From: Eledone cirrhosa
Taxonomy: Eukaryota
Length of the DNA: 64,000 bases
NCBI GenBank assembly: GCA_964016885.1
Contig: OZ024740.1
Span: 118,048,001-118,112,000 of the forward strand
Reading direction: 5' to 3'
Shown: positions 2,537 through 57,633 of the stretch, in pieces
Layout of the letters: each line of letters starts with the position of its first letter
Position numbering within the stretch: the first letter of the stretch is position 1
The notes under the pieces: model-generated
What the model was told of the DNA's origin: nothing
Seen by the model: the letters and a program-made list of their open reading frames with translations, nothing else
Database searches by the model: none
Position numbers and translations under genes: made by a program

Positions 2537-4274
2537 GTGGGCGGCAAAGCCAAAGGAGAGTGTAGAGACCTACCTTTCTGCTTCCCGGGTTCGGGTCGCA
2601 CGACTTCCATGGGGTCGGGGGTGTTGGGTAAAGGGGTGTCTTGTGGTGGTGTCGGGTCGTCAGTGTGTGGTGGGGTTGGGGTGTTTGGAGTTGTGTTGGG
2701 GAGGGGAAGGGGAGGGGGAAAGCTTTTTAGGAGGACGCTGTTTATGGGTTTGACAGAGGGTGGTCCTACGTCCTCCTTAAAATCCTTTTTTAGTTTTTGG
2801 TAGAGGTTCATTGGGACCTTTATTAATTTTAATTGTGGGTTGTTTTCTGAAAAAACAAAGTTTACCCCTTAGGTTTGTACCGAAGGGTTATTGTTTATGA
2901 GTTCATTTAATTTATTATTGTTTCTGTTGATGTAAGTATAGTGTAATGTCTTTTTTTTCGGATAGTGTGAGTGTTTCGAAGAGGGGAGGGGTAGGTTTGG
3001 TTTTGTTTGTTGCTGGAGGGGTGTTTTGTGTTCTGTTGGATTATGTTGACATTTGGGTAGGGGCTGTTTGGCCTTGTGTGTTTTGCACATGTTTTCTTTT
3101 TTTCCTTTTAATCTGTCTGAAGGCTCCGTTCTTCCTCCGAATTCGTTGGGTTATCTTCAGTGTTGGAGGGAAGAGGTATGTTTGCTGGTAGTGTTTCCGT
3201 GTTAGTTTTCTTTGTGGGGGAGATGGATGTCACTTTGTTAGACTGTGTTGTGTGTTGTGGCTGCGGTGGTTGTGTTGTTTTATTGAGTGAGGGGTTGGGT
3301 GGGACTGTGTTTTGTTTTGGGGTAATGTGTTGTGTCTGTTTGTGCTGTGGTGGTGGTGTAGTTTTACTGAGGAACGGGTTGGGTGGGACTGAGTTTTGTT
3401 GTTTGTTTATCTGTTGTGGTGGTGGTGGAGCTGGTGTTGGTAGCAGGGTTTTCTTCTTGTTGAGTTGGGGACAAGCCGTCTTCAGGTGCCCTCTGCCTCC
3501 ACAGATATGACAGGACGGCCTTCTCCCCTCCACGCTAATTTTTATATACCCGTGGCCCTCTAATAGGATTCTGTCGGGTATTTGGGCAATGCGTTCAGGC
3601 TTCATTTGCACTATAAGTTCTATACCTGTTCCACTGAACGCATTGCCTGTGGTTTTCCCAATGGAAATTACGTTGTCATTCGCTGGATCGATGAAGCCAG
3701 CTATGAGCCAGCAGTAGTCCATATCTGGCATCACCGCATCCAGCCATATGCGCTGAGTTCTTTTACCCATATAAGATGGATAAAAGGTAAAATTTGTCGA
3801 ACGAATCGGCACACAAAGCATATTTTTTCGCCGCAGATTCGTTCTTCATAATAATGGCCAGCTTCCATACAGCCTGTATCTTCTTATGAAAGTGGCTTCA
3901 TTAAATACTTCTCTAAGTACCGCTTTAATTTCTACTTGTGTTGGTTGTTGTGACTTTTTTGAGATGTTGTTGATGGTGCGGAAAACGACCGTCCGACTTT
4001 CAATATCTTTGGTGAGTTCTTGGGGCATTTTTACCGACAAGGCTCCATTTTCCCCTTGAGTTATGAATTGTTTGGCGTTTTTTATTCTTTGTGCCACATC
4101 TGAAATATTTTCAGGTATGTACGTTAAAGATTTTTTTGTTGTTTGTGCAAATGAGATGTTATTGGTGTTCACTTTGTCGTCTGTTTTGCTTTCTGTTATG
4201 ATGTTGTTGTTTTCAAATGTTATTTTTGTGTTTGTTGTTTCTTTGTTTGTGGTATTGCTATGCAATTCTTTCAA
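2524..4274 (-). pseudogene. LINE ORF1 (nucleic-acid-binding, CCHC knuckle), broken into several frames
   Basis: CHICGGRGHLKTAC (CX2CX4HX4C) in ORF 3108-3821. Consecutive minus-strand ORFs 4274-3846, 3821-3108, 3090-2869 and 2811-2524 abut ORF2. The Pro/Gln-rich tail has an internal repeat (NSVPPNPFLSKTT / NTVPPNPSLNKTT). Confidence 0.85.
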
Positions 4275-6821
4275 ATTTTTTTTTTGTTGGAATTAATCTC
4301 CAGATTTGTGTTTTCGTCGACATTTTTCTCCGCACATTCGCCTGTTTTTATTTTATTTTTTCTTTCCTTCTCTATGACGTTAGTTGGGAGGAAGGGGGGG
4401 GGACTAAAGCGTGGGAGCTTACAACTCTTACCGCTGTCCCCCCACCACTATTTTCGTTAGCTTCATTTAACATTTCTCCCAGACGATTGAAATTTTATGC
4501 AACAACATTTTTTTTTAAAACAGGTTTTTCACCCCTTGGGAGGGGTGAAAATGAGCTGACCCACCGCCTGTCATTTCAGACGGGGGGTCAAGCTACACAA
4601 TAGTATCACAATCAAAATTAAACTTACAAAATTTCCGCAATAAATTGGAACAAAACTTCTGCGCGAAGTGAATTACGTCTACGCTATCGGACAGACGACA
4701 GCTAGATTATCAGGCAGATAGATAGATAGAACAATAGATAGATAAATAGATAGGCAAACATAAAGACAGATATACGTAGAGACAGAGAGATCGACAGAAC
4801 TAGGAAGATAAAAAGGGGGAAGGAAGTGAAAGAGAAGGAAGGACTGTGATTAAGAATTTGGAGAAGATAGTTGCAATGGAATGTGATATTTGAAGTTGAT
4901 GAAAGGATATCGAATTATCAGTCGCTTTGCTGGGATAGAATATCTGAGGAGGTTTTTTATTTCCTGTATATATCCACTTTGTATCTAACTAAGGAGCTGA
5001 AGAGGTAGGGTATGGAAGGAGTTTTGTTGGATGCAGGCAGTGAGAAGCTGAGGCACATGAAATAGCAAATGTGAAGGTTATTTTCAATGTGTGTTCTAAC
5101 AGCCCCGCCTTGGTTAATGCATTGTAATTAGAAATATTTCAAAACGTTGGTTGATATTCTCTTGTTTAAAGACAAGAAAGCTCTGCTGCAATTTGAACAG
5201 CAGAAAAAAAGCAAGCTGTACATTACATAAAGTTATCATCTATTTATCTGGTTGACGGTTAGGTAAAATCTCTCAGCTGGAGGTGGCGGTTATCTGCTTA
5301 CGATAATTTCAAATGCAATTATATTAAATATACCATGACCAAGTTGATGCAGCACAGTTTTAGATAAATAAGTTGAAGGCTTTGAGATAATAATCTTCGA
5401 TTTTGTGTGATATATGTAGTATTATATTTAAATGAATGAGTCTGGCTGGTCCCTTATTGCACTGTCTAAGATGGAGAAGAGAGGAAACATATTTGGTGCA
5501 ATGGCTAGTCGACATAGAACTGGTGATGCACCGACATGTTTGATTTCTGTGGGTACAGGCATAATAGGCCTGAGTGTTGCAATCTAATTTCCAGTATCAG
5601 ATCAGTCCAGATAAAAGACATTTTGCATATCAGACTGTTCGTAGAGGAGACGGATATGTCCGGTTTCTACTTGATGCAATAAATCAGAATGGTAAACATT
5701 TCAACTTATGCTAAGGCACGGAATGTGCGTTAATGAGGCGGTGTTTTATACACAGAACTCCCCAGTAGGACAAATGCAGTAAAAGGGAATGAGGTAAATA
5801 TCTTTCAATGTATGTATGTCATCAGAAATAGTAATCAGCAGATCATTATCATGTATTGCTAACGCAGTATAAAATCAGAAAGTACACTGAAGTACACGAC
5901 AGTTAATATAATCGGCATTGAATGAACAGTCGTCAACCCATGTCACAGTTAAAAAAAAACAAAAACAACTATAGATAAATTGAGCTTAAGTAAGCAGTAT
6001 TGCTAAATGGATTACACGCTAGAATCAGTTGCATGCAAACTTATATCAAAGGCTGCAAATTTGTATTTTTCGGAAGTTCTCAACGCAAAAGAGCTACCAG
6101 TGTGTGAAGTAAGAAACGTAAATCTAGCTCAGTAAAAACTACATCGTATGTAGGGCGACTAAATCTGGTAAAGGCGATCATTTACAATAATCTCAAAAGC
6201 TTTGGCGATGTTTGTGGAGATGTCTTGTTCTATAAGATTGTGTTGATATTGATAAAGAAAGGCAGAAAGCTTAGTGAAGAGAATGATGTGTTGCATGGAC
6301 TACTAAAGTTTTTCTATTTAATTTATCAATATTTGAAACAACTGCAGTACTTAATCTTTCAATATGTCTTTCTTCTTCTATAGTTGAAATTCTCTGCACA
6401 CAGATGCCATTCAACATTTTGATAATCATATCTGAAATGCCATTCAATAATCCATATATACACCTGGAAAGCTCAGTAAACGTGTTTATGAGCTTATATC
6501 CTGGTCTACAACAGAAAGGTGAGCACCGCAGAAGAAATCGTTATAGAAAGAGTACAAACATTACAGAGAATTTCTGCTTCTTAAAAATATTAGATGAATA
6601 ATTTCTGAGCGAAATTAATGAAGGTGCAGGTAGTGGGATGTATTTTACAATCTAGCTCCGCTCTTTCACATGTGCTCACAAACTACTGTATTTGTCAATC
6701 ATGTTTCAAGACTTGTTATTATACAAAGGATATTATATCAATATGTATCATGATAAGGAGGGTGGATTTACAGAATGCGTAAGGTATCAGACATTTACAT
6801 TATTTAGTTACAGTTCTGATG

Positions 6822-9863: not shown

Positions 9864-10418
<555 letters not shown>

Positions 10419-20924: not shown

Positions 20925-24326
<3,402 letters not shown>

Positions 24327-29835: not shown

Positions 29836-29934
29836 AACATATGTAGGCAATTTATAATAGAAAAAGAAACATATGTCAAAGAAAATAGATTTATAATCAC
29901 TTCACGCTCAAGTTTTATTTTTCTTTATATACAT

Positions 29935-30740
29935 ACGCTTTTCAAACGCTTCCCTGTATAGATAAGAAATGTATAATCTGTAAATTAAGCCCCCATATTA
30001 ACTGTAAAACTAGAAATGTAGTATATAGCATAAAATGTACTGAAAGACAATGTAGAGATAAGAATATAGTGGACATAGGTGAGACAGCTCGTAGTATAGG
30101 GGAACGGATAAATGAACACTGGCGAGAGCTTCAAGATAGTAAAGAATCATCTGTACTCCACCAACATGCTACAATAGAACATAAAGGTAAATTAGAGAAA
30201 TTAGAAATAAAAATAGAATCTACACACAGAAAAGACGCAATGTTTAGACAAATCACAGAGGCAATAAACATAAATGAACTCCAACGAAATTAAATAGAAA
30301 ACATGAATGGAACAGCAACATCACCACTTACAATTAAGGACAAAATGAAAACACACACACACATAGAACAAACAACCAACCGGTAAGATGTAAATAAACA
30401 AATAAATAAACAAATATAAACACACACAGACACCCGGATGTAACAGATGCGCAAACTAAGCACACAACACACACAAAAACAAGATGGCGTAGGACAGAAC
30501 AAAGGAGAAGTACAAAAACAAAGAAAAGAATGTCCAGTCACTGAAGAGGTCAGAGAATCTATGACGAAAGAACTTTGACAATATATGTACAACAATCTGG
30601 TTGTGGAACCAACCAACCAACCGGAAATTTATAAATTGCTAAATTTATAAATTTAATTTATAAAAAATTGAAGTGAAAGCTTCTGGTGCGTGTGTTTCTT
30701 ATTGGCAACATGAACCTCCCAAAGTATAACAATATATATA
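29935..30740 (+). mobile_element. 3' fragment of a second, different PLE (GIY-YIG) plus 3' UTR/pseudo-LTR
   Basis: CIICK...NCKTRNVVYSIKC...C...DIGETARSIGERINEH...LHQH...RQITEAI. HHR-like motif at 30537-30580. Ends at a (TA)n tract. Confidence 0.85.
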
Positions 30741-30877
30741 TATGTTTTTATCGTCTCCGTTGAACCGGTACGTACTCACGCTCTATGCAAATTAGTCTGC
30801 CCACTACTAATTTTCATAGAAAAAGCATATAACGATATGTGCTTTTACGATTCTCTAGAAAGGCCGGAAGATAGGTA

Positions 30878-30922
30878 AATATTGCTGATGAGTTGTAACA
30901 ACAACGAAACTAGTTCAATATT
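30878..30922 (+). ncRNA. Minimal type I hammerhead ribozyme
   Basis: AATATTG-CTGATGA-GTTGT(aaca)ACAAC-GAAA-CTAG-TT/CAATATT. Confidence 0.85.
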
Positions 30923-31343
30923 CCTTGTCTGGCTTTCTGGAGAATAGAGGAAAGGTGTTTCCTCAAAAACCAGTATGACTCTAAAAACCGGTTTGTCTGT
31001 GTGTTTACATACAGAATAGCTGGACACTCACAGTAAAGTGACCAGTGAAAAACTCTGTACATCTACATATGTATACGTGTGTGTATTCATATGCATACTA
31101 GTATTTCAGTATACATATGTGGATGTACATTTTTAACTTAATTGTTTAAGCGTCAGTCATACAAAAGTGAGTTACAACCGAAACGAAATTTAATTTCGTT
31201 TCGTTATTTGTTTTTATCCTCTCCGTTGAACCGGTACGTACTCACGCTCTATGCAAATTAGTCTGCCCACTACTAATTTTCATAGAAAAAGCATATAACG
31301 ATATGTGCTTTTACGATTCTCTAGAAAGGCCGGAAGATAGGTA

Positions 31344-31388
31344 AATATTGCTGATGAGTTGTAACAACAACGAAACTAGTTCAATATT
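31344..31388 (+). ncRNA. Minimal type I hammerhead ribozyme (second tandem copy)
   Basis: Identical to 30878-30922. Confidence 0.85.
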
Positions 31389-31609
31389 CCTTGTCTGGCT
31401 TTCTGGAGAATAGAGGAAAGGTGTTTCCTGAAAAACCAGTATGACTCTAAAAACCGGTTTGTCTGTGTGTTTACATACAGAATAGCTGGACACTCACAGT
31501 AAAGTGACCAGTGAAAAACTCGGTACATCTACATATGTATACGTGTGTGTATTCATATGCATACTAGTATTTCAGTATACATATGTGGATGTACATTTTT
31601 AACTTAATT

Positions 31610-32070
<461 letters not shown>

Positions 32071-33426
32071 TAAGTATGTATACGTACATACATATATGTA
32101 TACAGACGTATAGTAGTATGTATATATATATACATACATGGACACAAATATATATATATGCATGGACGTATCCATTCACCTAAGATTTATTATAATGCTC
32201 GGTGTGTTTGTAAACAAACATCCCGAATTAAGCCGTACAGTGTCTAGCAACCATCGTTGCTCATTTGTTCAACACTGACAAAGGAACGCTGTACTAGTTT
32301 CAAGTTTATTAGCAATCGTCAGCAACGTATATCTTCCTGCCAGATGGTTGAACGTCTGAAAGTGTATACTTTCCTTATGCATATTAAGGGCTCAGCAGCC
32401 TAATTTGCATATCAAGTGAGCTAATCGGCTGGGGTAACGAAAACGATAAACGGAAATAATGAAACGAAATTTCATTTCTCACTCTTAGTACGGCTGTTAC
32501 TTAAATATAGGTATGTATACGTACATACATATATGTATTCAGACGTATAGTCGTATGCATATATATACATATATACACACATATATATTTATGTACGTAT
32601 GGATTCACCGAAAATATATTATAATGCTATGTGTGTTTGTAAACAAACATCCCGAATTAAGTCGTACAGTGTCTAGCAACCATCGTTGCTCATTTGTTCA
32701 ACACTGATAAAGGAACGCTGTTTCCAGCTTATTAGCTATCGTCAGCAACGTATACCTTCCTACCAGATGGTTGAACGTCTGAAAGTATATACATTCTTCA
32801 TGCATATTAACGGCTGAGCAGCAAGATTTGCATATCGAGTAAGATAATTGGCCGGCGTACCGGAAAGGATAAACGGAAAAAATGAAACGAAATTTCATCT
32901 CTCACTCTTAGTACGGCTGTTACATAAATATAAGTATGTATACGTACATACATATATGTATTCAGACGTATAGTCGTATGCATATATATACATATATGCA
33001 CACATATATATTTATGTATGTATGGATTCACCGAACATTTATTATAATTCTCGGTGTGTTTGTAAACAAACAACCCGAATTAAGCAGTACAGTGTCTAGC
33101 AACCATCGTTGCTCATTTGTTCAACACTGACAGAGGAATGCTGTAGTAGTTCCAAGCTTATTAGCTATAGTCAGCAACGTATACCTTCCTACCAGATGGT
33201 TGAACGTCTGAAAGTATATACTTTCTTTATGCATATTAACGGCTGAGCAGCCTAATTTGCATATCAAGTGACTTAATCGGCCGGGCTACCGAAAACGATA
33301 AACGGAAAAATGAAACGAAATTTCATTTCTCACACTTAGTACGGCTGTTACTTATAAAAAAGTATGTATACGTACACACATATATGTATACAGACGTACA
33401 GTCGTATGTATATATATACATACATG

Positions 33427-33509
<83 letters not shown>

Positions 33510-34375
33510 GTATGGATTCACCGAACATTTATTATAATGCTCGGTGTGTTTGTAAACAAACATCCCGAATTAAGCCGTACAGTGTCTAGCAACCATCGTT
33601 GCTCATTTGTTAAACACTGACAAAGGAACGCTGTAATAGTTTCAAGATTATTAGCTATCGTCAGCAACGTATACCTTCCTGCCAGATTGTTGAACGTCTG
33701 AAAGCATATACTTTCTTTATGCATATTAACGTCTTAGCAGCAAAATTTGCATATCGAGTAAGATAATCAGCTGGCGTACCGAAAACGATAAACGGAAAAA
33801 ATGAAACAAAAGTTCATCTCTCACTCTTAGTACGGCTGTTACGTAAATATAAGTATGTATACGTACATACATGTATGTATACAGACGTACACTAGTATGT
33901 ATATATATACATTCATGCACACACATATATATATATGTACGTATGTATACACCGAACATTTATTATAATCCTCGGTGTGTTTGTAAACAAACATGCCGAA
34001 TAAAGCCGTACAGTGTCTAGCAACCATCGTTGCTCATTTGTTCAACACTGACAAAGGAACGCTGTACTAGTTTCAAGCTTATTAACTATGGTCAGCAAGG
34101 TATATCTTCCTGCCAGATGGTTGAACGTCTGAAAGTATATACATTCCTCATGCATATTAACGGCTGAGAAGCCTAATTTGCATATCGAGTGAGTTAATCG
34201 GCCGGGGTACCGCCAACGATAAACGGAGAAGATGAAACGAAATTTCATTTCTCAATCTTAGTACGGCTGTTACTTAAATATAAGTATGTATACGTACATA
34301 CATATATGTATACAGACGTACAGTAGTATGTATATATATACATACATGCACAGGTATATATATATATATATATAT

Positions 34376-34801
34376 AACGATAAATTAACGGAGGCATAGG
34401 CCGTCGTTATTCCCTGTAAATAATGTGCTCAAAGGGGAAGAGATCCTGAGCCCTTTAATATATAATATGTTGAGAAGGTAACACACCAGAGAGAGATATA
34501 TAGTGCGTTATCAATAATACAGGGAAAAAAACCCACCAGTGTATGGAATCTATATCCTATGGAAGGCAGACTATAGACACGATAATTAAAAATATAATTC
34601 AAAGCGTAAATAAATACCTCTATAACTATATAACTATATATAGTTATAGAGGTATTTATTTACGCTTTAATTTATATTTTTAATTATCGTGTCTATAGTC
34701 TGCCTTTCATAGGTTATAGATTCCATACACTGGTGGGTTTTTTCCCTGTATTATTGATAACGCACTATATATATCTCTCTCTGATGTGTTACCTTCTCAA
34801 C

Positions 34802-34810
<9 letters not shown>
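34376..34810. mobile_element. Unrelated fold-back insertion within the (TA)n tract of one satellite monomer
   Basis: Unique ~80-bp leader, then ~175-bp inverted arms (34459-34632 vs 34640-34810), with (TA)n on both sides. Confidence 0.8.
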
Positions 34811-34864
<54 letters not shown>

Positions 34865-36141
34865 GATTGGATTCACCGAACATTTATTATAAGGCTTGGT
34901 GTGTTTGTAAACAAACATCCCGATTTAAGCCGTACAGTGTCTCGCAACCATCGTTTCTCATTTGATCAACACTGACAAAGGAACGCTTTACTAGTTTCAA
35001 ACTTATTAGCTATCGTCAGCAACATATATCTTCCTGCCAGATGGTTTAACGTCTGAAAGCATATACTTTCCTTATGCATATTAACGGCTGAGCAGCCTAA
35101 TTTGCATATCGAGTGTGTTAATCGGCCGGGGTACCGCAAACGATAAAGGGAAAAAATGAAACGAAGTTTCATTTCTCACTCTTAATACGGCTGTTACTTA
35201 AATATAAGTATGTATACGTACATACATATATGTATACAGATGTACAGTAGTATGTATATATATACATACATGCACATAGATATATATATATGTACGTATG
35301 GATTCACCGAACATTTATTATAATGCCCGGTGTGTTTGTAAACAAACATCCCGAAATAAGCCGTACAGTGTTTAGCAACCATCGTTACTCATTTGTTCAA
35401 CACTGTCAAAGGAACGCTTTACTAGTTTCAAGCTTATTAGCTATCGTCAGCAACGTATACCTTCCTGTCAGATTGTTGAACGTCTGAAACCATATACTTT
35501 CTTTATGCATATTAACGTCTTAGCAGCAAAATTTGCATATCGAGTAAGATAATCAGCTGGCGTACCGAAAACTATAAACGGAAAAAAATGAAACAAAAGT
35601 TCATCTCTCACTCTTAGTACGGCTGTTACTTAAATATAAGTATGTATACGTACATACATATATGTATAGAGACGTACACAAGTATGTATATATATACATT
35701 CATGCACATATATACATATATATGTACGTATGGATTCACCGAACATTTATCGTAATTCTCGGTGTGTTTGTGAAAAACATCCCGAATTAAGCCGTACAGT
35801 GTCTAGCAACCATTGTTGCTCATTTGTTCAACACTGACAAAGGAAAGCTGTACTAGTTTCAAGCTTATTAACTATCGTCAGCAAGGTATACCGTCCTGCT
35901 AGATGGTTGAACGTCTGAAAGTATATACATTCCTCATGCATATTAACGTCTGAGTAGCCTAATTTGCATATCGAGTGAGTTAAACGGCCGGGGTACCGCC
36001 AACGATAAACGGAGAAGATGAAACGAAATTTCATTTCTCAATCTTAGTACGGCTGTTACTTAAATATAAGTATGTATACGTACATACATATATGCATACA
36101 GAAGTACAGTAGTATGTATATATATACTTACGTGCACATAA

Positions 36142-36176
<35 letters not shown>

Positions 36177-36199
36177 TACATGTATGTATATATATATAT

Positions 36200-36269
<70 letters not shown>

Positions 36270-36275
36270 ATATAT

Positions 36276-36361
<86 letters not shown>

Positions 36362-36571
36362 ATGTGCACGTATGTATATATATACATACTACTGTACTTC
36401 TGTATACATATATGTATGTACGTATACACACATATATTTAAGTAACAGCCGTACTAAGATTGAGAAATGTAATTTCGTTTCATCTTCTGCGTTTATCGTT
36501 GACGGTACCCCGGCCGTTTAACTCACTCGATATGCAAATTAGGCTACTCAGTCGTTAATATGCATGAGGAA

Positions 36572-36664
<93 letters not shown>

Positions 36665-37642
36665 GTACGTTTGGATGGATTCACCGAACATTTATTATAC
36701 TGCTCGGTGTGTTTCTAAACGAACATCCCGAATTAAGCGGTACAATCTCTAGCAACCATCGTTGCTCATTTGTTCAACACTGACAAAGGAACGCTCTAGT
36801 AGTTTCAAGCTTATTAGCTATCGTCAGCAACGTATACCTTCCTACCAGATGGTTGAACGTCTGAAAGTATATACTTTCCTTATGCATATTAACTGCTGAG
36901 CAGCCTAATTTGCATATCGAGTGAGTTAATCGGCCGGGGTACCGAAAAACATAAACGGAAAAAATGAAACGAAATTTCATTTCTCACTCTTAGTACGGCT
37001 GTTACTTAAATATAAGTATATATACGTACATACATATATGTATACAGACGTACAGTAGTATGTATATATATACATACATGCACACATATATATATATATG
37101 TACGTATGGATTCACCGAACATTTAATATAATGCTCTGTGTGTTTGTAAACAAACATCCCGAATTAAGCGGTACAATCTCTAGCAACCATCGTTGCTCAT
37201 TTGTTCAACACTGACAAAGGAACGCTCTAGTAGTTTCAAGCTTATTAGCTATCGTCAGCAACGTATACCTTCCTACCAGATGGTTGAACGTCTGAAAGTA
37301 TATACTTTCCTTATGCATATTAACTGCTGAGCAGTCTAATTTGCATATCAAGTGAGTTAATCGGCCGGGGTACCGAAAAACATAAACGGAAAAAATGAAA
37401 CGAAATTTCATTTCTCACTCTTAGTACGGCTGTTACTTATAAAAAAGTATGTGTGCGTACACACATATATGTATACAAACGTACAGTCGTATGTATATAT
37501 ATACATACATGCACACATATATATGTACGTATGTATTCACCGAACATTTATTATAATGCTCGGTGTGTTTGTAAACAAAAATCCCGAATTAAGCCGTACA
37601 GTGTCTAGCAACCATCGTTGCTGATTTGTTAAACACTGACAA

Positions 37643-37699
37643 AGGAACGCTGTACTAGTTTCAAGCTTATTAGCTATCGTCAGCAACGTATACCTTCCT
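37643..37699 (-). ncRNA. Exemplar satellite hammerhead ribozyme (one of ~35)
   Basis: Minus strand: AGGA-aggtat-ACGTTG-CTGACGA-T-AGCT(aata)AGCT-T-GAAA-CTAG-TA/CAGCGT-TCCT. Predicted cleavage after GUA, between plus positions 37653 and 37652. Confidence 0.8.
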
Positions 37700-40600
37700 A
37701 CCAGATGGTTTAACGTCTGAAAGTATATACCTTCCTTATGCATATTTACGGCGGAGCAGCCTAATTTGCATATCTAGTGAGTTAATCGGCCGGGGTACCA
37801 AAACGATAAACGGAAAGATGAAACGAAATTTCATTTCTCACTCTTAGTACGGCTGGTACTTAAATATATGTATGTATACGTACATACATATATGTATAAC
37901 AGACGTACAGTAGTATGTATATATATACATACATGCACACATATATATATATATGTACGTATGGATTCACCGAACATTTATTATAATCCTCGATGTGTTT
38001 GTAAACAAACATCCCGAATTAAGCGGAACAATGTCTAGCAACCATCGTTGCTCATTTGTTCAATACTGACAAAGGAACGCTGTAGTAGTTTCAAGCTTAT
38101 TAGCTATCGTCAGCAACGTATACCTTCCTGCCAGATTGTTGAACGTCTGAAAGCATATACTTTCTTTATGCATATTAACGTCTTAGCAGCAACATTTGCA
38201 TATCGAGTAAGATAATCAGCCGGCATACCGGAAACGATAAACGGTAAAAATTAAACAAAATTTCATCTCTTACACTTAGTACGGCTGTTACTTAAATATA
38301 AGTATGTATACGTACATACATATATGTATACAGACGTACACTAGTATGTATATATATACATTCTTGCACACATATATATATATATATGTACGTATGGATT
38401 CACCGAACATTTATTATAATGCTCGGTGAGTTTGTAAACAAACATCCCGAATAAAGCCGTACGGTGTCTAGCAACGATCGTTGCTCATTTGTTCAACACT
38501 GACAAAGGAACGCTGTACTAGTTTCAAGCTTATTAGCTATCGTCAGCAACGAATACCCTGCTGCCAGATGGTTGAACATCTGAATATATATACTTTCCTT
38601 ATGCATATTAACGGCTCAGCAGCTTAATTTGCATATAGACTGAGTTAATCGGCCTGGGTACCGAAAACGATAAACGGAAAAAATGAATCGAGATTTCATA
38701 TCTCACTCTTTGTACGGCTGTTACTTTAATATAAGTAGGTATACGTACATACATATATGTATAACAGACGTACAGTCGTATGTGTATATATACATACATG
38801 CACACATATATATTTATGTACGTATGGATTCACCGAACATTTATTATTATACACGGTGTGTTTGTATACAAACATCCCGAATTAAGCCGTACAGTGTCTA
38901 GCAACCATCGTTGCTCATTTGTTCAACACTGACAAAGGAACACTGTACTAGTTTCAAGCTTATTAGCTATCGTCAGCAACGAATACCCTGCTGCCAGATG
39001 GTTGAACATCTTAAGTATATACTTTCCTTATGCATATTAACGGATGAGCAGCCTAATTTGCATATCTAGTGAGTTAATCGGCCGGGGTACCGAAAACGAT
39101 AAACGGAAAAAATGAAACGAAATTTCATTTCTCACTCTTAGTACGGGTGGTACTTAAATATATATATGTATACGTACATATATATATGTATACAGAAGTA
39201 CAGTAGTATGTATATATATACATACATTCACACATATACATATATATATATATATATGTACGTTTGGATTCACCGAACATTTATTATAAACCACGGTGTG
39301 TTTGTAAACAAACATCCCGAATTAAGCCGTACAGTGTCTACCAACCATCGGTGCTCATTTGTTCAACACTGACAAAGGAACGCTGTACTAGTTTCAAGCT
39401 TATTAGCTATCGTCAGCAACGAATACTCTGCTGCCAGATGGTTGAACATCTGAATATATATACTTTACTTATGCATATTAACGGCTGAGCAGCTTAATTT
39501 GCATATAGACTGAGTTAATCGGCCTGGGTACCGAAAACGATAAACGGAAAAAATGAAACGAAATTACATTTCTCACTTTTTGTACGGCTGTTACTTAAAT
39601 ATAAGTAGGTATACGTACATACATATATGTATAACAAACGTACAGTCGTATGTATATATATACATACATGCACACATATATATATATGTACGTATGGATT
39701 CACCGAACATTTATTATAAAGCACGGTGTGTTTGTATACAAACATCCCGAATTAAGCCGTACTGTGTCTCGAAACCATCGTTGATCATTTGTTCAACATT
39801 GACAAAGGAACGCTGTAGTAGTTTCAAGCTTATTAGCTATCGTCAGCAACGTATACCTTCCTACCAGATGGTTGAACGTCTGAAAGTATATACTTTCCTT
39901 ATGCATATTAACTGCTGAGCAGCCTAATTTGCATATCGAGTGAGTTAATCGGCCGGGGTACCGAAAAACATAAACGGAAAAAATGAAACGAAATTTCATT
40001 TCTCACTCTTAGTACGGCTGTTACTTAAATATAAGTATATATACGTACATACATATATGTATACAGACGTACAGTAGTATGTATATATATACATACATGC
40101 ACACATATATATATATATGTACGTATGGATTCACCGAACATTTAATATAATGCTCTGTGTGTTTGTAAACAAACATCCCGAATTAAGCGGTACAATCTCT
40201 AGCAACCATCGTTGCTCATTTGTTCAACACTGACAAAGGAACGCTCTAGTAGTTTCAAGCTTATTAGCTATCGTCAGCAACGTATACCTTCCTACCAGAT
40301 GGTTGAACGTCTGAAAGTATATACTTTCCTTATGCATATTAACTGCTGAGCAGTCTAATTTGCATATCAAGTGAGTTAATCGGCCGGGGTACCGAAAAAC
40401 ATAAACGGAAAAAATGAAACGAAATTTCATTTCTCACTCTTAGTACGGCTGTTACTTATAAAAAAGTATGTGTGCGTACACACATATATGTATACAAACG
40501 TACAGTCGTATGTATATATATACATACATGCACACATATATATGTACGTATGTATTCACCGAACATTTATTATAATGCTCGGTGTGTTTGTAAACAAAAA

Positions 40601-43600
40601 TCCCGAATTAAGCCGTACAGTGTCTAGCAACCATCGTTGCTGATTTGTTAAACACTGACAAAGGAACGCTGTACTAGTTTCAAGCTTATTAGCTATCGTC
40701 AGCAACGTATACCTTCCTACCAGATGGTTTAACGTCTGAAAGTATATACCTTCCTTATGCATATTTACGGCGGAGCAGCCTAATTTGCATATCTAGTGAG
40801 TTAATCGGCCGGGGTACCAAAACGATAAACGGAAAGATGAAACGAAATTTCATTTCTCACTCTTAGTACGGCTGGTACTTAAATATATGTATGTATACGT
40901 ACATACATATATGTATAACAGACGTACAGTAGTATGTATATATATACATACATGCACACATATATATATATATATGTACGTATGGATTCACCGAACATTT
41001 ATTATAATCCTCGATGTGTTTGTAAACAAACATCCCGAATTAAGCGGAACAATGTCTAGCAACCATCGTTGCTCATTTGTTCAATACTGACAAAGGAACG
41101 CTGTAGTAGTTTCAAGCTTATTAGCTATCGTCAGCAACGTATACCTTCCTGCCAGATTGTTGAACGTCTGAAAGCATATACTTTCTTTATGCATATTAAC
41201 GTCTTAGCAGCAACATTTGCATATCGAGTAAGATAATCAGCCGGCATACCGGAAACGATAAACGGTAAAAATTAAACAAAATTTCATCTCTTACACTTAG
41301 TACGGCTGTTACTTAAATATAAGTATGTATACGTACATACATATATGTATACAGACGTACACTAGTATGTATATATATACATTCTTGCACACATATATAT
41401 ATATATATGTACGTATGGATTCACCGAACATTTATTATAATGCTCGGTGAGTTTGTAAACAAACATCCCGAATAAAGCCGTACGGTGTCTAGCAACGATC
41501 GTTGCTCATTTGTTCAACACTGACAAAGGAACGCTGTACTAGTTTCAAGCTTATTAGCTATCGTCAGCAACGAATACCCTGCTGCCAGATGGTTGAACAT
41601 CTGAATATATATACTTTCCTTATGCATATTAACGGCTCAGCAGCTTAATTTGCATATAGACTGAGCTAATCGGCCTGGGTACCGAAAACGATAAACGGAA
41701 AAAATGAATCGAGATTTCATATCTCACTCTTTGTACGGCTGTTACTTTAATATAAGTAGGTATACGTACATACATATATGTATAACAGACGTACAGTCGT
41801 ATGTGTATATATACATACATGCACACATATATATTTATGTACGTATGGATTCACCGAACATTTATTATTATACACGGTGTGTTTGTATACAAACATCCCG
41901 AATTAAGCCGTACAGTGTCTAGCAACCATCGTTGCTCATTTGTTCAACACTGACAAAGGAACACTGTACTAGTTTCAAGCTTATTAGCTATCGTCAGCAA
42001 CGAATACCCTGCTGCCAGATGGTTGAACATCTTAAGTATATACTTTCCTTATGCATATTAACGGATGAGCAGCCTAATTTGCATATCTAGTGAGTTAATC
42101 GGCCGGGGTACCGAAAACGATAAACGGAAAAAATGAAACGAAATTTCATTTCTCACTCTTAGTACGGGTGGTACTTAAATATATATATGTATACGTACAT
42201 ATATATATGTATACAGAAGTACAGTAGTATGTATATATATACATACATGCACACATATACATATATATATATATATATGTACGTTTGGATTCACCGAACA
42301 TTTATTATAAACCACGGTGTGTTTGTAAACAAACATCCCGAATTAAGCCGTACAGTGTCTACCAACCATCGGTGCTCATTTGTTCAACACTGACAAAGGA
42401 ACGCTGTACTAGTTTCAAGCTTATTAGCTATCGTCAGCAACGAATACTCTGCTGCCAGATGGTTGAACATCTGAATATATATACTTTACTTATGCATATT
42501 AACGGCTGAGCAGCTTAATTTGCATATAGACTGAGTTAATCGGCCTGGGTACCGAAAACGATAAACGGAAAAAATGAAACGAAATTACATTTCTCACTTT
42601 TTGTACGGCTGTTACTTAAATATAAGTAGGTATACGTACATACATATATGTATAACAAACGTACAGTCGTATGTATATATATACATACATGCACACATAT
42701 ATATATATGTACGTATGGATTCACCGAACATTTATTATAAAGCACGGTGTGTTTGTATACAAACATCCCGAATTAAGCCGTACTGTGTCTCGAAACCATC
42801 GTTGATCATTTGTTCAACATTGACAAAGGAACGCTGTAGTAGTTTCAAGCTTATTAGCTATCGTCAGCAACGTATACCTTCCTGCCAGATGGTTGAACGT
42901 CTGAAAGTATATACTTTCCTTATGCATATTAACGGCTGAGCAGCCTAATTTGCATATCGAGTTTGTTAATCGGCCGGGGTACCGCAAATCATAAAGAGAA
43001 AAAATGATACGAAATTTCCTTTCTCACTCTTAGTACGGCTGTTACTTAAATATAAGTATGTATACGTACATACATGTATGTATACAGACGTACACTAGTA
43101 TGTATATATATACATTCATGCACACACATATATATATGTAAGTACGGATCCACCGAACATTTATATTATAACGTTCGGTGAGTTTGTAAACAAACATCCC
43201 GAATTAAGCCGTACAGTGTCTAGCAACCATCTTTGTTCATTTGTTCAACACTGACAAAGGAACGCTGTACTAGTTTCAAGCTTATTATCTATCGTGAGCA
43301 ACGTATACCTTCCTGCCAGATTGTTGAACGTCTGAAAGTATATACTTTCTTTATGCATATTATCGGTTGAGCAGCCAAATTTGCATATCAAGTAAGTTAA
43401 TCGGCCGGGGTACAGAAAACGATAAAAGGAAAAAATGAAACGAAATTTCATTTCTCTCTCTGAGTACAGCTGTTACTTAAATATAAGTATGTATACGTAT
43501 ATACATATATGTATTCAGACGTACAGTCGGTTGTATATATATACATATATGCACACATATATATACATGAACGTATGGATTCACCGAACATTTACTATAA

Positions 43601-46600
43601 TTCTCGGTGTGTTATGCATATTAACGTACATACATATATGTATACAGACGTATGTATACGTATATACATATATGTATTCAGACGTACAGTCGTATGTATA
43701 TATATACATATATGCACACATTTATATATATATGAACGTATGGATTCACCGAAGATTTATTATAATTCTCGGTGTTTTTGTAAACACACATCCCGAAATA
43801 AGCCGTACAGTATCTCGCAACCATCGTTGCTCATTTGTTAAATACTGACAAAGGAACGCTGTACTAGTTTCAAGCTTATTAGCTATCGTCTGCAACGTAT
43901 ATCTTCCTGCCAGATGGTTGAACGTCTGAAAGTATATACTTTCCTTATGGATATTAACGGCTGGGCAGCTTAATTTGCATATCGACTGGGTTAATTGGCC
44001 GGGGTACCGAAAACGATAAACGGAAAAAATGAAACGAAATTTCATTTCTCACTCTTAGTACGGCTGTTACTTAAATATATGTATGTATACGTACATACAT
44101 ATATGTATACAGACGTACATTCGTATGTATATATATACATACATGCACACATATATATATATGTACGTATGGATTCACCGAACATTTATTATAATGCACG
44201 CTATGTTTGTATACAAACATCCCGAATTAAGCCGTTCAGTGTCTCGCAACCATCGTTGCTCATTTGTTCAACACTGACAAAGGAACGCTGTACTAGTTTC
44301 AAGCTTATTAGCTATCGTCAGCAAGGTATACCTTCCTGCCACATAGTTGAACGTCTGAAAGTATATACATTCCTCATGCATATTAACGGCTGGGTAGCAT
44401 AATTTAGCATATCGACTGGGTTAATCGGCCGGGGTACCGAAAACGATAAACGGAAAAAATGAAACGAAATTTTTATACCTCACTCTTAGTACGGCTGGTA
44501 CTTAAATATAAGTATGTATACGTACATACATATATGTATACAGACGTACAGTCGTATGTATTTGTATACATATATGCACACATATATATATATGAATGTA
44601 TGGATTCACCGAACATTTATTATAATTCTCGGTGAGTTTATAAACAAACATCCCGAATTAAGCCGTACAGTGTCTAGCAACCATCGTTGCTCATTTGTTC
44701 AACCCTGACAAAGAAACGCTGTAATAGTTTAAAGCTTATTAGCTATCGTCAGTAACGTATACCTTCCTGCCAGATGGTTGAACGTCTGAAAGTATATACT
44801 TTCTTTATGCATATTAACGGATGAGCAGCCTAATTTGCATATCGAGGGAGTTAATCCGCCTGGGTACCGAAAACGATAAACGGAAAAAAATGTAACGAAA
44901 TTTCATTTCTCTCTCTTAGTACAGCTGTTACTTAAATATATGTATGTATACGTACATACATATATGTATTCAGACGTACAGTCGTATGTATATATATACA
45001 TATATGCACACATATATATATATATGAACGTATGGATTCACCGAACATTTATTATAATTCTCGGTGTTTTTGTAAACAAACATCCCGAATTAAGCCGTAC
45101 AGTGTCTCGCAACCATCGTTGCTCATTTGTTAAATACTGACAAAGGAACGCTGTACTAGTTTCAAGCTTATTAGCTATCGTCAGCAACGTATATCTTCCT
45201 GCCAGATGGTTGAACGTCTGAAAGTATATACTTTCCTTATGGATATTAACGGCTGGGCAGCTTAATTTGCATATCAAGTGAGTTAATCGGCCGCGCTACC
45301 GAAAACGATAAACGAAAAAATGAAACGAAATTTCATTTCTCACAATTAGTACGGCTGTTACTTAAAGATAAGTATGTAACGTACATACATATATGTATAC
45401 AGACGTACAGTCGTATGTGTATATATACATACATGCACACATATACATATGTACGTATGGATTGACGGAACATTTATTATAATGCTCGGTGTGTTTGTAA
45501 ATAAACATCCCGAATTAAGCCGTACAGTGTCTAGAAACCATCGTTGCTCATTTGTTCAACACTAACAATGAAACGCTGTAATAGATTCAAGATTATTAGC
45601 TATTGTCAGCAAAGTATATCTTACTGCCAGATGGTTTAACGTCTGAAAGTATATACTTCCCATATGCATATTAATGGCTGAGCAACCTAATTTTCATATC
45701 GAGTGAGTTAATCGGCCGGGGTACCGAAAACGATAAACGAAGATGAAACGAAATTTCATTTTTAAATATTAGTACGGCTTTTACTTAAATATACATATGT
45801 ACGTATGGATTGACGGAACATTTATTATAATGCTCGGTGTGTTTGTAAACAAACATCCCGAATTAAGCCGTACAGTGTCTAGCAACCATCGTTGCTCATT
45901 TGTTCAACCCTGACAAAAGAACGCTGTAATAGTTTCAAGCTTATTAGCTATCGTCAACAACGTATACCTTCCTGCCAGATGGTTGAACGTCTGAAAGTAT
46001 ATACTTTCCTTATGCATATTAACGGCTGAGCAGCCTAATTTGCATATCGAGTGAGTTAATCGGCCGGGGTACCGAAAACGATAAACGGAAAAAATAAAAC
46101 CAAATTTCATTTCTCACTCTTAGTACGGCTGTTACTTAAATATAAATATGTATACGTACATACATATATGTATACAGACGTACATTCGTATGTATATATA
46201 TACATACATGCACACATATATATATATGTACGTATGGATTCACCGAACATTTATTATAATGCACGCTGTGTTTGTATACAAACATCCCGAATTAAGCCGT
46301 TCAGTGTCTCGCAACCATCGTTGCTCATTTGTTCAACACTGACAAAGGAACGCTGTACTAGTTTCAAGCTTATTAGCTATCGTCAGCAAGGTATACCTTC
46401 CTGCCACATAGTTGAACTTCTGAAAGTATATACATTCCTCATGCATATTAACGGCTGAGTAGCATAATTTAGAATATCGACTGGGTTAATCGGCCGGGGT
46501 ACCGAAAACGATAAACGGAAAAAATGAAACAAAATTTTTATATCTCACTCTTAGTACGGCTGTTACTTAAATATAAGTATGTATACGTGCATGCATATAT

Positions 46601-48429
46601 GTATACAGACGTACAGTCGTATGTATATATATACATACATGCACATATATATATATGTAAGTATGGATTAACCGAACATTTATTATAATACACTGTGTGT
46701 TTGTATACAAACATCCCTAATTAAGCCGTACAGTGTCTCGCAACCATCGTTGCTCATTTGTTCAACACTGACAAAGGAACGCTGTACTAGTTTCATGCTT
46801 ATTAGCTATCGTCAGCAACGTACTCCTTCCTGCCAGATGGTTGAACGTCTGAAAGTATATAGTTTCTTTATGCATATTAACGGCTGAGCAGCCTAATTTG
46901 CATATCAAGTGAGTTAATCGGCCGGGGTACAGAAAACGATAAACGGAAAAAATGAAACGAAATTTCTTTTCTCACTCTTAGTACGGCTGTTACTTAAATA
47001 TAAGTATGTATACGTACATACATATATGTATTCAGACGTACAGTCGTATGTATATATATACATATATACACACATATATATATATACGAATGTATGGATT
47101 CACCGAACATATATTATAATTCTCGGTGAGTTTATAAACAAACATCCCGAATTAAACCGTACAGTTTCTAGCAACCATCGTTGCTCATTTGTTCAACACT
47201 GACAAAGAAACGCTGTAATAATTTCAAGCTTATTAGCTATCGTCAGCAACGTATACCCTGCTGCCAGATGGTTGAACGTCTGAAAGTATATACATTCCTC
47301 ATGCATATTAACGGCTGAGTAGCCTAATTTTGCATATCGACTGAGCTAATCGGCCGGGGTACCGAAAACGATAAACGGAAAAAATGAAGCGAAATTTCAT
47401 TGCTCACTCTTAGTACGGCTGTTACTTAAAGATAAGTAGGTATACGTGCATGCATATATGTATACAGACGTACAGTCGTATGTATATATATACATACATG
47501 CACACATATATATATATATATGTAAGTATGGATTCACCGAACATTTATTATAATACACGCTGTGTTTGTATACAAACATCCCGAATTAAGCCGTACAGTG
47601 TCTCGCAACCATCGTTGCTCATTTGTTCAACACTGAGAAAGGAACGCTGTATTAGTTTCAAGCTTATTAGCTATCGTCAGCAACGTATACCCTGCTGCCA
47701 GATGGTTGAATATCTGAAAGTATATACTTTCCTTATGCATATTAACGGCTGAGCAGCCTAACTTGCATTACGAGTGAGTTAATCGGCTGGGATACCGAAA
47801 ACGATAAACGGAAAAAATGAAACGAAATTTCATTTCTCACTTTTAATACGGCTGTTACTTAAATATAAGTATGTATACGTACATACATATATGTATATAG
47901 ACGTACAGTAGTATGTATATATATATACATACATGCAGATATATATATATATGTACGTATGGATTCACCGAACATATATTATAATGCTCGGTGTGTTTGT
48001 AAACAAACATCCCGAAATAAGCCGTACAATGTCTAGCAACCATCGTTGCTCATTTGTACAACACTGACAAAGGAACGCTGTACTAGTTTCAAGCTTATTA
48101 GCTATCGTCAGCAATATATACCTTCCTGCCAGATGGTTGAACGTCTGAAAGTATATACTTTCCTTATGCATATTAACGGCTGAGCAGCCTAATTTGCATA
48201 TCGAGTGAGTTAATCGGCCGGGGTACCGAAAACGATAAACGGAAAAAATGAAACGAAATTTCATTTCTAACTCTTATTAGCTATCGTCCGTTCATCGTTT
48301 TCGGTACTCCGGCCAATTAACTCACTCGATATCCAAATTAGGCTGCTCAGCCGTTAATGTGCATAAGGAAAGTATATACTTTCAGACATTCAACCATCTG
48401 GCAGAAAGGTATGCGTTGGGAGATGAGCT

Positions 48430-49540
48430 ACTTGTCACGGACCAAAGACTCATTTTAAGTTATGGTAGAAATATTTAAAGTCTTATCTATCATCAGCACT
48501 CTGCAATTCTTGTGCCTTTATTTGCCACTATGTCTCTCTCATTTGCCGCTGCTGAGATTGACATTTATTTCTGGCCTTCTTGAACTCATTGCACACTGAG
48601 GCATTATTCCTCTCTGTCATCCACTGGAGGAGGAGCTTGCCCTTGTTATCCAAAATTGTAGAAATGTTTGGATCGTTTTAATCAAACAATGTTTGATGTT
48701 TTCTCTTTACAGAGCCAAATTTTTGCAGGGATGATTCATAGATAGCATTTTTGAAAGCAGACGATGTTGATTCTATATCTGTGCCCTCAGGGATACCAGC
48801 AAGCATACTATCACAGATGTGGTGTTATATTGTTCGTGTTGTTGAGTCTTTTCAATCTCCAGTAGCTGATCAGGATCATCTTGTCTAGTTTCTAAGATAG
48901 TAGTTATGCCAATGTTTTTCTCTTTTAGGCCATCGACAATCAAAGTGGTCCTACGTTCGAGGTTCGTCTTGCTGTCTTGGAGAGTTTGCATATTCCAAGA
49001 TCTAATGAATAGGGTTTTGAATTTCAATTTTGATTCCTGTAGTGTTCTGGTGCAGTTTTGTATACCCAGTCATCTGACAGGGAGTGATGCGAGTAATTCA
49101 TTTTTAGGTCACAGTTTTATGACTTCTCCGCCCATTCCAAACAGGGCTGCTTTGATGTGAGAGATGGACGGGAGTTACTCAATAACTTACACATATTGTG
49201 CAAAACCGCCATCTTTCTCTCACTACTCATGTGAAGACGTCAAGCTGGGAACTTCCAGTGACATTCTTCGCCTGTTCCTGTCACTATCTCTCCATCACCA
49301 TTGAATGTTTTTATGGTATTTACTAAACTACCCGCACATGACTTCTTTATAGCAGCCATTGCTTGTGCAGTTCAATACACACTCTCTCCACCAAGGTAGC
49401 ATTTACTCTGCGGGTGCACAGTGTGCCATATGCCAGATGCTAAAATAATTGCAAGTTTTATTTTGGGATGGGCTGTGACTCTCCTGCCATTCTCCACTCT
49501 TTGAAAAGTTTTGCTTTTCATCCAACAGGCTGTCCAGTAA
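48430..49540 (-). mobile_element. RTE/BovB-like LINE 5' fragment (start of the APE endonuclease), degraded
   Basis: ORF 48773-49027, SWNMQTLQDSKTNLERRTTLIVDGL...ILETR, resembles the RTE motif TWNVRTL...ERRTALIA..L...SETR. Outer boundaries are approximate. Confidence 0.7.
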
Positions 49541-49580
49541 TCACCATCCTTTATGTGTGTGAGAGTGTATATATATATAT

Positions 49581-51267
<1,687 letters not shown>

Positions 51268-56544: not shown

Positions 56545-57633
56545 TTAAATTTATTAGTGAGAAATAATAACGAAGCTCTAGCTAGAAGTGGCCACAAAAA
56601 TAAATTAGTATATATACCTTGTACCAATAACACTACAAACACACAACCTAATATTACCAACAAACACCAAATGAAACATACACACCTAACTGCCACTCAC
56701 ACTATACCCCAAAATACCAACATAAAACCAAATTTCTATAACTCTTCTAATATACAATATAGTAACTCTCAAAAAACCACTCATCCTACAACTCTAATAA
56801 ATGGTAATAATAAAACTCCTAATAAACAAGCTAAAACACCTAAATCAATAAATCTAACTAAAAATGTGTGGTGAAGTCATTAACAATAATTATCTTAATA
56901 AACATCAGGATACATCCTATAAAAACAATAAACAACATCGAAACCGTAATAGACGAGTTACTTGGTATAATGCTCCATTTAATTTACAAATTAAGGATAA
57001 TATACCTAAAAAATTCTTTAATATCCTAGAGAAGAACTTCCCGCCAAACCACAAATACCATCAAATTTTAAATAGATCAACGGTTAAATTCTCCTACTCA
57101 ACAACCAAAAACATAAAACAAAATATAAGTGCCTACAATGCATATAAATGTAGAAAAACCATGAGTATACCAGCAGTACATCAAACAAACCATAATATCT
57201 CCTCGGATACAGGATTCACGAAAAGTTGTAACTGTAGAAACAAGGCAAACTGCCCATTAAAAGGAAATTGCCTTGTTAATAACATAGTATATAAATGTAA
57301 AGTTAACACTAAAGACTCAATTTATTCATATATAGGAGCTACCTCTAACAAATTTAAGGTAAGATTTAATACCCACAAACATACCTTTAAAAATGCCGCA
57401 CTAGCTAATACAACATCTCTAGCTGAAATAATTAATAATTATAGAAAGAGGAATATAGATTATGACCTGACCTGGAGTGTGCTCAAAATAATAGATATGA
57501 ATGTAGATTATGTTACCAAGAACTTTTTGAAATAATGAAATCTAAGGATATCCTATTAAATAAGCGAAAGGAATTAATAATATCGTGTAATCATAAACTG
57601 AGAAAAACCTTTAAATATTATAAACCTAATTAA
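56545..57633 (+). pseudogene. 5'-truncated Penelope-like element (RT thumb end, Asn-rich linker, GIY-YIG endonuclease), probably Hydra-type clade
   Basis: NEALARSGHKNKLVY, RRVTWYNAPF, HKYHQILNRSTVKFSYS, CNCRNKANCPLKGNC, IVYKC...YIGAT...RFNTH, then after a frameshift CRLCYQE...LLNKRKE...CNH*. The clade assignment is from memory. Confidence 0.88.

Follow-up and report, generated by a model that had tools for sequence, protein, structure and literature searches.

A dispersed hammerhead-bearing repeat of Eledone cirrhosa with the insertion footprint of a Penelope-like element: a candidate non-LTR retrozyme

The 64,000-nucleotide stretch of Eledone cirrhosa DNA analysed here (GenBank assembly GCA_964016885.1, contig OZ024740.1, positions 118,048,001 to 118,112,000 of the forward strand; hereafter the window) belongs to an AT-rich genome of 3.0 Gb and contains an array of 35 units of ~431 bp that bear hammerhead ribozyme motifs and are assigned to a putative non-long terminal repeat (non-LTR) retrozyme family. 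Positions within the unit are given as q, the number of nucleotides from the predicted cut site along a 431-nt majority unit built from the window. The array is limited on the left at 32065/32071, where it ends at q~221 in (TA)n, and on the right at 48418. A periodicity of 430-431 bp was found from ~33465 to 48276 with Tandem Repeats Finder. A fuzzy motif search located 35 hammerhead motifs from 32297 to 48115, every one on the minus strand, and none on the plus strand of the array, which confirms the ~35 minus-strand motifs between ~32290 and ~48115 counted in an earlier note on this DNA. The cut-to-cut distance was 423-440 bp in 29 of the 34 intervals; the five irregular intervals measured 348, 490, 594, 924, and 946 bp. 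To the left lie an insertion of a sister retrozyme family and a fragment of an autonomous Penelope-like element (PLE). Coordinates are listed in Table 1.

Table 1. Features of the window (PSE, proximal sequence element; PWM, position weight matrix; UTR, untranslated region).
Feature	Position	Strand	Remark
Array of 35 hammerhead-bearing ~431-bp units, putative non-LTR retrozyme family	32065..48418	-	Canonical 3' end in (TA)n on one side, inverted 5' piece on the other
Inverted, 5'-truncated piece (q269-400), 132 bp	48287..48418	+	At 5' end of array
(TA)n target	31611..32070		Array ends in the tract (q~221) from the right, sister repeat from the left
Interruption at internal TA tract	36138..36663		Expanded (TA)n flanking inverted piece 36341-36579 (q126-360)
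Interruption at internal TA tract	34371..34860		Unrelated ~430-bp inverted-repeat element
Seven-unit near-exact duplication	36797..42836	-	Copies 36797-39815 and 39816-42836
Exemplar type I hammerhead motif	37643..37699	-	Predicted cut between 37653 and 37652
U6-type upstream promoter-like element (PSE-like), exemplar unit	37760..37772	-	Contains octamer; PWM 20.2 bits
TATA-like box	37723..37729	-	42 nt after PSE-like element, just upstream of ribozyme
Tail segment between the two fixed insertion ends (q~221, q277), exemplar unit	37382..37437	-	Conserved hairpin and T6 run (37395-37390)
Sister retrozyme family, independent insertion adjoining array	30739..31611	+	465-bp unit; hammerhead cores at 30885 and 31351
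3' fragment of autonomous Neptune-type PLE (family B)	29889..30738	+	GIY-YIG end, 3' UTR, own hammerhead at 30537
Solo, diverged, 5'-truncated unit copy (q73-277)	23371..23571	+	Ends in (AT)n

The motif has the features of a type I hammerhead, namely the CUGANGA...GAAA core, an NUH triplet (GUA), and stems I-III in type I order. In the exemplar, the core CUGACGA (37683-37677) is followed by U (37676), a stem II of AGCU/AGCU with an AAUA loop, a second U (37663), GAAA (37662-37659), CUAG, and the GUA triplet; stem I is lengthened by AGGA/UCCU beyond a bulge. The structure drawn in the earlier note thus stands, with one change of emphasis. Stem III had been called vestigial; the short stem is present, but it is rather a palindrome (37659-37654), and hammerheads cleaving as dimers are marked by just such a short palindromic stem (PMC4209133). 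A stem III of 1-2 bp, a palindromic loop, and tandem copies are all found here; a construct of a single unit might therefore be cleaved poorly even if the element is functional. The core is intact in 27 of the 35 array motifs, and 17 have both the core and the stem III palindrome ACUAGU.

Comparison between families indicates that the hammerhead motif is not a chance one. Over nine motifs drawn from three related families, the paired cells amount to 95.6%, both sides have changed in 6 of the 15 stem pairs, and the core is nearly invariant; the stem changes across the sister families are compensatory. None of 500 shuffles matched the pairing or the covariation score, and slid controls were 34-48% paired. 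Because the sequences are related and the structure was drawn by the analyst, the covariation is supportive rather than a probability. The Rfam hammerhead models, suggested as a check in the earlier note, gave no match at the gathering score, nor when 37200-38600 was scanned at E<=10; the fold of the 71-nt motif on its own was not unusually stable (z -0.44). Two points count against an active ribozyme. First, the pair at 10.1/11.1 that closes stem II, which is 'highly conserved' as G10.1-C11.1 in hammerheads (PMC4209133), is U.U (37676/37663) in the array family, as had been remarked before; the sister family has G-C, and U.U also occurs in single unrelated motifs at loci L067 and L078. Second, the core, which was expected to be better conserved than the rest of the monomer, is so to a modest degree within the array (7/242 changes against 355/6701, with no statistical test).

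The G of the stem III palindrome (position 16.2, e.g. 37655) is the most variable of the ~316 array sites scored. It is altered, to C, T, or A, in 11 of the 22 non-redundant array units and in 4 of the 103 dispersed motifs (ACUAGU is kept at this position in 99/103 dispersed and 17/35 array motifs), a comparison in which the units are non-independent and the dispersed set is selected, so that the computed P value overstates the difference. The variability may reflect a mutational hotspot, common descent of the units, or selection acting in long arrays against cleavage. At least eight further unrelated hammerhead-like motifs were seen elsewhere (L008, L009, L017, L023, L024, L027, L028, L067, L078, and L096), most of them with a palindromic stem III.

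The family extends far beyond the window. A 316-bp query gave 1952 first-look candidates genome-wide, and the best 40 scored 94-96% identity on many contigs. Dispersed copies are mostly partial tandems of 1.5-5 units; the 28 non-window loci of the first set are short partial tandems, many with inverted arms. Four chance insertions were met in 64 loci (247,550 bases) fetched for other reasons, or ~1 per 60 kb, a rate from a repeat-biased sample that would mean tens of thousands of copies genome-wide only if the sample is typical. As judged from these copies, the family is a dispersed genome-wide mobile repeat and not primarily a satellite. The earlier class call of a hammerhead-bearing tandem repeat and non-LTR retrozyme is supported.

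The ends of the dispersed copies point to a mode of insertion. In the first locus set, copies ended at q218-225 and q276-278, running into (TA)n. The first query had spanned the cut site, so the end test was redone with a q1-110 query, which gave 30 loci, or 28 after exclusion of two window ones (L143 and L160 repeat L013 and L026). In this set 14 copies end at q221-225, 13 at q276-277, and one at q382, nearly all into a TA microsatellite. The 5' ends are scattered from q23 to q408, and at 18 of the 28 loci an inverted arm adjoins the 5' end at a distance of no more than 40 nt. None of the 28 begins at the cut site; two scored q1 retain hammerhead sequence upstream on inspection. Twenty-five reach upstream beyond q385 and so run through the predicted start and enter the promoter region. 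In the sister family, the ends fall at homologous sites (q227-232 and q298-301). Contigs assembled from sequencing runs, possibly of the assembly's own sample, show loose ends at the q277 site (37382); three sequencing runs (kind unstated, one study) had 34-38% of words present.

Two fixed 3' ends (27/28), inverted arms (18/28), and a microsatellite target make up a PLE-type insertion. Partial tandems, an inverted 5'-truncated copy, a tail, and a microsatellite bias are hallmarks of PLEs (PMC8557442), and two internal reverse transcriptase (RT) start sites account in vitro for PLE ends (PMC11167929). The coding PLE represented in the window, family B, behaves in the same way. It has RT and GIY-YIG matches, weak and below Pfam cut-offs, and a Neptune-type C-x4-C-xx-C linker. 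Of the 40 matches to its end motif, spread over 29 loci, 19 finish there and the other 21 go on into a tail of 57-60 nt, which is near the ~56 nt of the array family; 18 of the 21 tails then enter (AT)n. Given this two-ended tail in an autonomous PLE, the likely route is target-primed reverse transcription by a PLE, starting at internal sites of an RNA that is either circular or an uncleaved multimer, and the family is very probably a PLE-mobilised retrozyme. The earlier proposal of reverse transcription back into arrays needs correction in that the starts lie at two internal sites and not at the ribozyme cut, and in that the long array grew locally. Three points weigh against mobilisation by PLEs. 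Neither the two sampled PLE families (top matches) nor the loci gathered yielded an autonomous PLE homologous to the unit; the sister-family tail is ~70 nt rather than 56-60 nt; and all locus samples are top BLAST matches, biased to young copies. Family B itself has no detectable sequence in common with the unit, and for this reason it is only a candidate mobiliser.

Transcription had been supposed to come by read-through. To this we add that each unit appears to carry a U6-type promoter element of its own, rather than depending on read-through alone. The octamer-containing element is the best conserved non-ribozyme block between the array and sister families. Its 12-13-nt motif is shared with the U6 genes of the genome (three contigs), the best U6atac match, and the MRP gene, in which it lies at -76 to -78 with a TATA box at -30. 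With a matrix from five genes, the unit scored 20.2 bits (0/1000 shuffles) and the sister unit 16.0 bits (1/1000), although the motif window was chosen after the sighting in the unit and the scores are not blind. A single non-retrozyme match was found in 432,548 background positions, and the element is absent from 13 U1/U2 upstream regions (<=3.5 bits). A start 30 nt past the TATA-like box would fall at ~37699, in the 5' strand of stem I, in both families. Local alignments of the upstream regions gave no convincing match for a distal element (~-260).

That this element is a working U6-type promoter is put forward tentatively, at a little short of an even chance. Much speaks against it. The motif is carried by 7 of the 12 U6 loci, one of the six U6atac loci (the best), and the one MRP gene; five U6 loci have a different variant at the same place, and the five U6atac matches without it are probably pseudogenes. 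In a held-out test, the one RNase P gene lacked the element and had a U1/U2-type element instead. The spacing from element to TATA is 42 nt (sister 41) against 46-48 nt in the genes. A T6 run at q264 would end most RNA polymerase III (Pol III) transcripts before a full unit. Eighteen of the 35 array units have the exact element, which, at 17/264 changes, is no more conserved within the array than other sites. It is quite possible that the element does not work as a Pol III promoter, being instead a defunct remnant, part of a Pol II promoter, or a binding site for an octamer factor, and that transcription comes from host read-through, as in the standard retrozyme model; its conservation between families, its fixed spacing to the TATA-like box and the hammerhead, its near-absence from the background, and its absence from U1/U2 upstream regions argue the other way.

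The precedents for such a promoter are mixed. Retrozymes seem to lack promoters (PMC7761336), and the U6-type element sets the present family apart from the metazoan ones. The hammerhead units of newt satellite 2 and Schistosoma SM-alpha are alike in that each has a promoter of its own, so placed that it can serve only when units stand in tandem; the schistosome short interspersed element (SINE)-like repeats are transcribed by Pol III and the newt satellite by Pol II, with dimer cleavage (PMC6765202; PMC6155905). The element described here differs from both in matching the host U6/U6atac/MRP upstream element and TATA box. As side observations on the host small nuclear RNA (snRNA) promoters, U6, U6atac, and MRP have the octamer-like element at -77 and TATA at -30 (L112-L123, L166, L172), U1, U2, and RNase P have another common element near -60 and a TATA-like box (L124-L127, L173-L183), and a CT-rich motif near -260 is common to the U6 and U2 genes; host RNase P may be of Pol II type. 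Newt satellite 2 is said, after Coats, Zhang and Epstein in 1994, to use an snRNA-type promoter with an octamer and a PSE. A hammerhead satellite with an snRNA-type promoter would thus probably not be the first of its kind.

As for the template, the copies cross the cut junction and include the region upstream of the start; this speaks against a linear monomer released by cleavage, barring clean template jumps by the enzyme, and against a primary transcript that had terminated. The footprints point to a circle or an uncleaved multimer, and we lean slightly towards the circle. In young sister loci, the units of one insertion are near-identical even between both arms, as rolling-circle copying of one monomer predicts: four of the five units of L102 have no differences, and differences within and to other loci are 0-3 and at least 17 for L098, 3 and at least 13 for L096, and 0-5 and at least 5 for L089. 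Older sister loci have 8-17 differences within a locus. In the predicted fold of the circular monomer, the extended stem I is closed and a hairpin lies between the two end sites (no shuffle control). Other results weaken the case for a circle. L102 and L091 differ by just 3-4 changes, which blunts the single-template argument, and a homogeneous source array would give the same unit identity. In the array family the comparison is a weak one: units differ by 3.7% within loci and 3.9% between, though with five-fold more shared derived changes within. Only one of nine predicted Xenopus retrozyme dimers was cleaved in vitro (bioRxiv 10.64898/2026.07.22.740005). In the case of an anole PLE, the substrate was predominantly RNA that had not been processed, and mutation of the ribozyme left insertion normal (PMC11167929); a circle may thus not be required.

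The same PLE machinery could accordingly have copied an uncleaved linear multimer from tandem source loci, with no circle and with a hammerhead that is slow, protein-dependent, or dispensable. This version is rather unlikely, though it has the anole PLE as a direct precedent and equally explains the lack of 5' ends at the cut, the copied promoter region, and, given a homogeneous source, the homogeneous units; U.U and the loss of the stem III palindrome in 10 of the 26 non-redundant array units would make for weak cleavage. It leaves aside that the core and stems are kept, with compensatory changes between families ~67% alike, which argues for selection on the fold, and that coral, mussel, and axolotl retrozymes give abundant circles (PMC7229834).

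By the features tested, the element would be a non-LTR retrozyme that behaves like a non-autonomous PLE. The unit is non-coding, a few hundred bp long, and below 50% GC, with at least two consecutive complete hammerheads; its copies are dispersed, no LTR structure was seen in 28+28 loci (primer-binding site and polypurine tract not searched separately), and PLEs are abundant in the genome. No open reading frame (ORF) with RT and GIY-YIG lies in the unit or is continuous with it. The unit is improbable as the pseudo-LTR of an unsampled autonomous PLE whose 5'-truncated ends are the copies. Hammerheads of this type do occur in PLE pseudo-LTRs (PMC4209133), to which the retrozymes of Xenopus are related (bioRxiv 10.64898/2026.07.22.740005). 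Here, however, the units are joined head to tail with no coding sequence between them, and no PLE ORF enters a unit in the loci gathered, save for chance neighbours whose 3' ends come first. The sister repeat was also considered as the pseudo-LTR of the PLE fragment at 29889-30738 and was rejected, as a sister unit follows the 3' UTR in none of the 29 other copies.

The long array itself is a secondary state. Its units are 5.9% off the majority sequence, against 2.0% for the best dispersed matches, and its variants are private (shared derived changes 0.0041/site within the window against 0.0006 between window and dispersed copies). The copies of the seven-unit duplication are identical at 3017 of 3019 aligned bases, with two mismatches and a 2-bp indel in 3 kb, and reflect a recent unequal exchange or an assembly duplication. 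Taken together, the private variants, the divergence, and the duplication make it most likely that one older insertion grew in place by DNA-level duplication. Such amplification, with the lack of an Rfam match and the unremarkable folding z-score, would also fit ordinary satellite DNA with a chance hammerhead-like motif, which is scarcely credible given the full core, palindromic stem III, covariation, and genome-wide dispersal with retrotransposition footprints.

We therefore regard the family as probably a non-autonomous, protein-free non-LTR retrozyme copied by a PLE reverse transcriptase-endonuclease, with later local growth of the array. Multi-unit RNA would arise from the U6-type element of the unit, with some read-through of T6, or by read-through from outside. 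Two hammerheads would pair via the palindromic stem III and release a 431-nt monomer, which a host RtcB-type ligase would circularise. According to the insertion footprints, the PLE enzyme nicks (TA)n on both strands and primes cDNA at q~221 and q277; the cDNA runs back across the ribozyme junction through further units, and what is left is a partial tandem with a truncated 5' end, in many cases split into two arms that face opposite ways. By the sequence evidence, this one insertion then grew in place to 35 units by DNA-level duplication and was struck by later insertions at the internal TA tract. A bolder form of this scheme, unlikely in its entirety, is a SINE-like retroelement with an external U6-type Pol III promoter in each unit, a promoter-containing 431-nt circle, and rolling copying by a Neptune-type PLE from two internal sites, each new tandem being promoter-complete; the U.U-closed hammerhead would be active, and long arrays would be damped by palindrome loss.

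The family resembles metazoan non-LTR retrozymes of coral, mussel, and axolotl, which have non-coding units of 150-450 bp, low GC, and one type I hammerhead each, occur as dispersed short arrays with a few long ones, and share their genomes with PLEs (PMC7229834; bioRxiv 10.64898/2026.07.22.740005). It differs from them in the PLE tail and inverted arms, unreported in the available parts of those two sources (the words 'tail' and 'promoter' are both absent from the 2026 preprint), and in U.U at 10.1/11.1. With PLEs of the Neptune/Poseidon clades it has in common partial tandems, an inverted 5'-truncated arm, and two 3' ends with a tail (PMC8557442, PMC11167929), as well as (TA)n targets and a dimer-type hammerhead with palindromic stem III (PMC8557442, PMC11167929, PMC4209133); it differs in having no ORF, a tail of ~56 nt against 30-40 nt, and no homology to the sampled autonomous families. 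No description of the family was found in the literature searched; repeat databases, some older papers, and key supplements lay outside the search and may list the family or the U.U variant. Relative to the literature compared, a PLE tail footprint in a retrozyme, a U6-type element in each unit, and the U.U pair appear to be new.

The sister family is the better candidate for bench tests. Its unit of 465-470 bp, 67% identical to the array unit over q130-360, has a GUC/GUU triplet, a canonical stem II with G10.1-C11.1, the same palindromic stem III, and the same promoter-like element, and the family is young and dispersed. Further copies lie in the window at 9870 (+) and 10164-10295 (-) and at loci L088-L106 and L110-L111; one array reaches at least 20 kb with a two-unit periodicity, and L088 holds a third subfamily.

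Other features of the window are noted for completeness. The element at 34371-34800 is an unrelated long inverted repeat of ~430 bp within the TA tract of one array unit. A very abundant PLE family with a C-terminal endonuclease (56569-57535 (+); L032-L050; 61,279 first-look candidates; open frames to 834 aa) had no hammerhead by pattern search and no homology to the unit. At 49563-50510 (+), a short element forms a partial tandem that runs out in (TA)n and includes a remnant similar to a PLE N-terminus. Tandem and inverted tRNA-like copies at 50700-51260 (Rfam tRNA 39 bits, 50742-50806) also end in (TA)n and are possibly a tRNA-derived, PLE-mobilised element. A fragment of a long interspersed element (LINE) at 1697-4292 (-) includes an endonuclease domain (Pfam Exo_endo_phos, E 4.7e-08) as well as a zinc-knuckle region like that of ORF1. 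Inspection by eye suggested a LINE-like remnant at ~48420-49500, which a tblastn search with two RTE-like proteins did not bear out.

A hammerhead satellite as such is already well precedented. The mover of animal retrozymes and the circle as template are open questions, and these the insertion ends address. The defining papers name PLEs merely as likely movers (PMC7229834, PMC7761336), and the Xenopus study argues for PLE mobilisation from phylogeny (bioRxiv 10.64898/2026.07.22.740005). The ends described here place the starts of reverse transcription to the nucleotide, share their tail with a coding PLE of this genome, and, clean template jumping by the enzyme apart, leave no room for a cleaved linear template; the mapped ends and the shared tail make the mover question directly testable with the published assay of PLE target-primed reverse transcription. 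The matched element also yields a U6-type promoter motif of the host, which might be put to use for expressing guide RNAs in this animal group. The presence of a U6-type promoter in every unit, if true, would overturn the view that retrozymes have no promoter and explain the need for tandem or circular forms, and a SINE-like retroelement of this kind, if true, would get round the rule that retroposons need an internal promoter.

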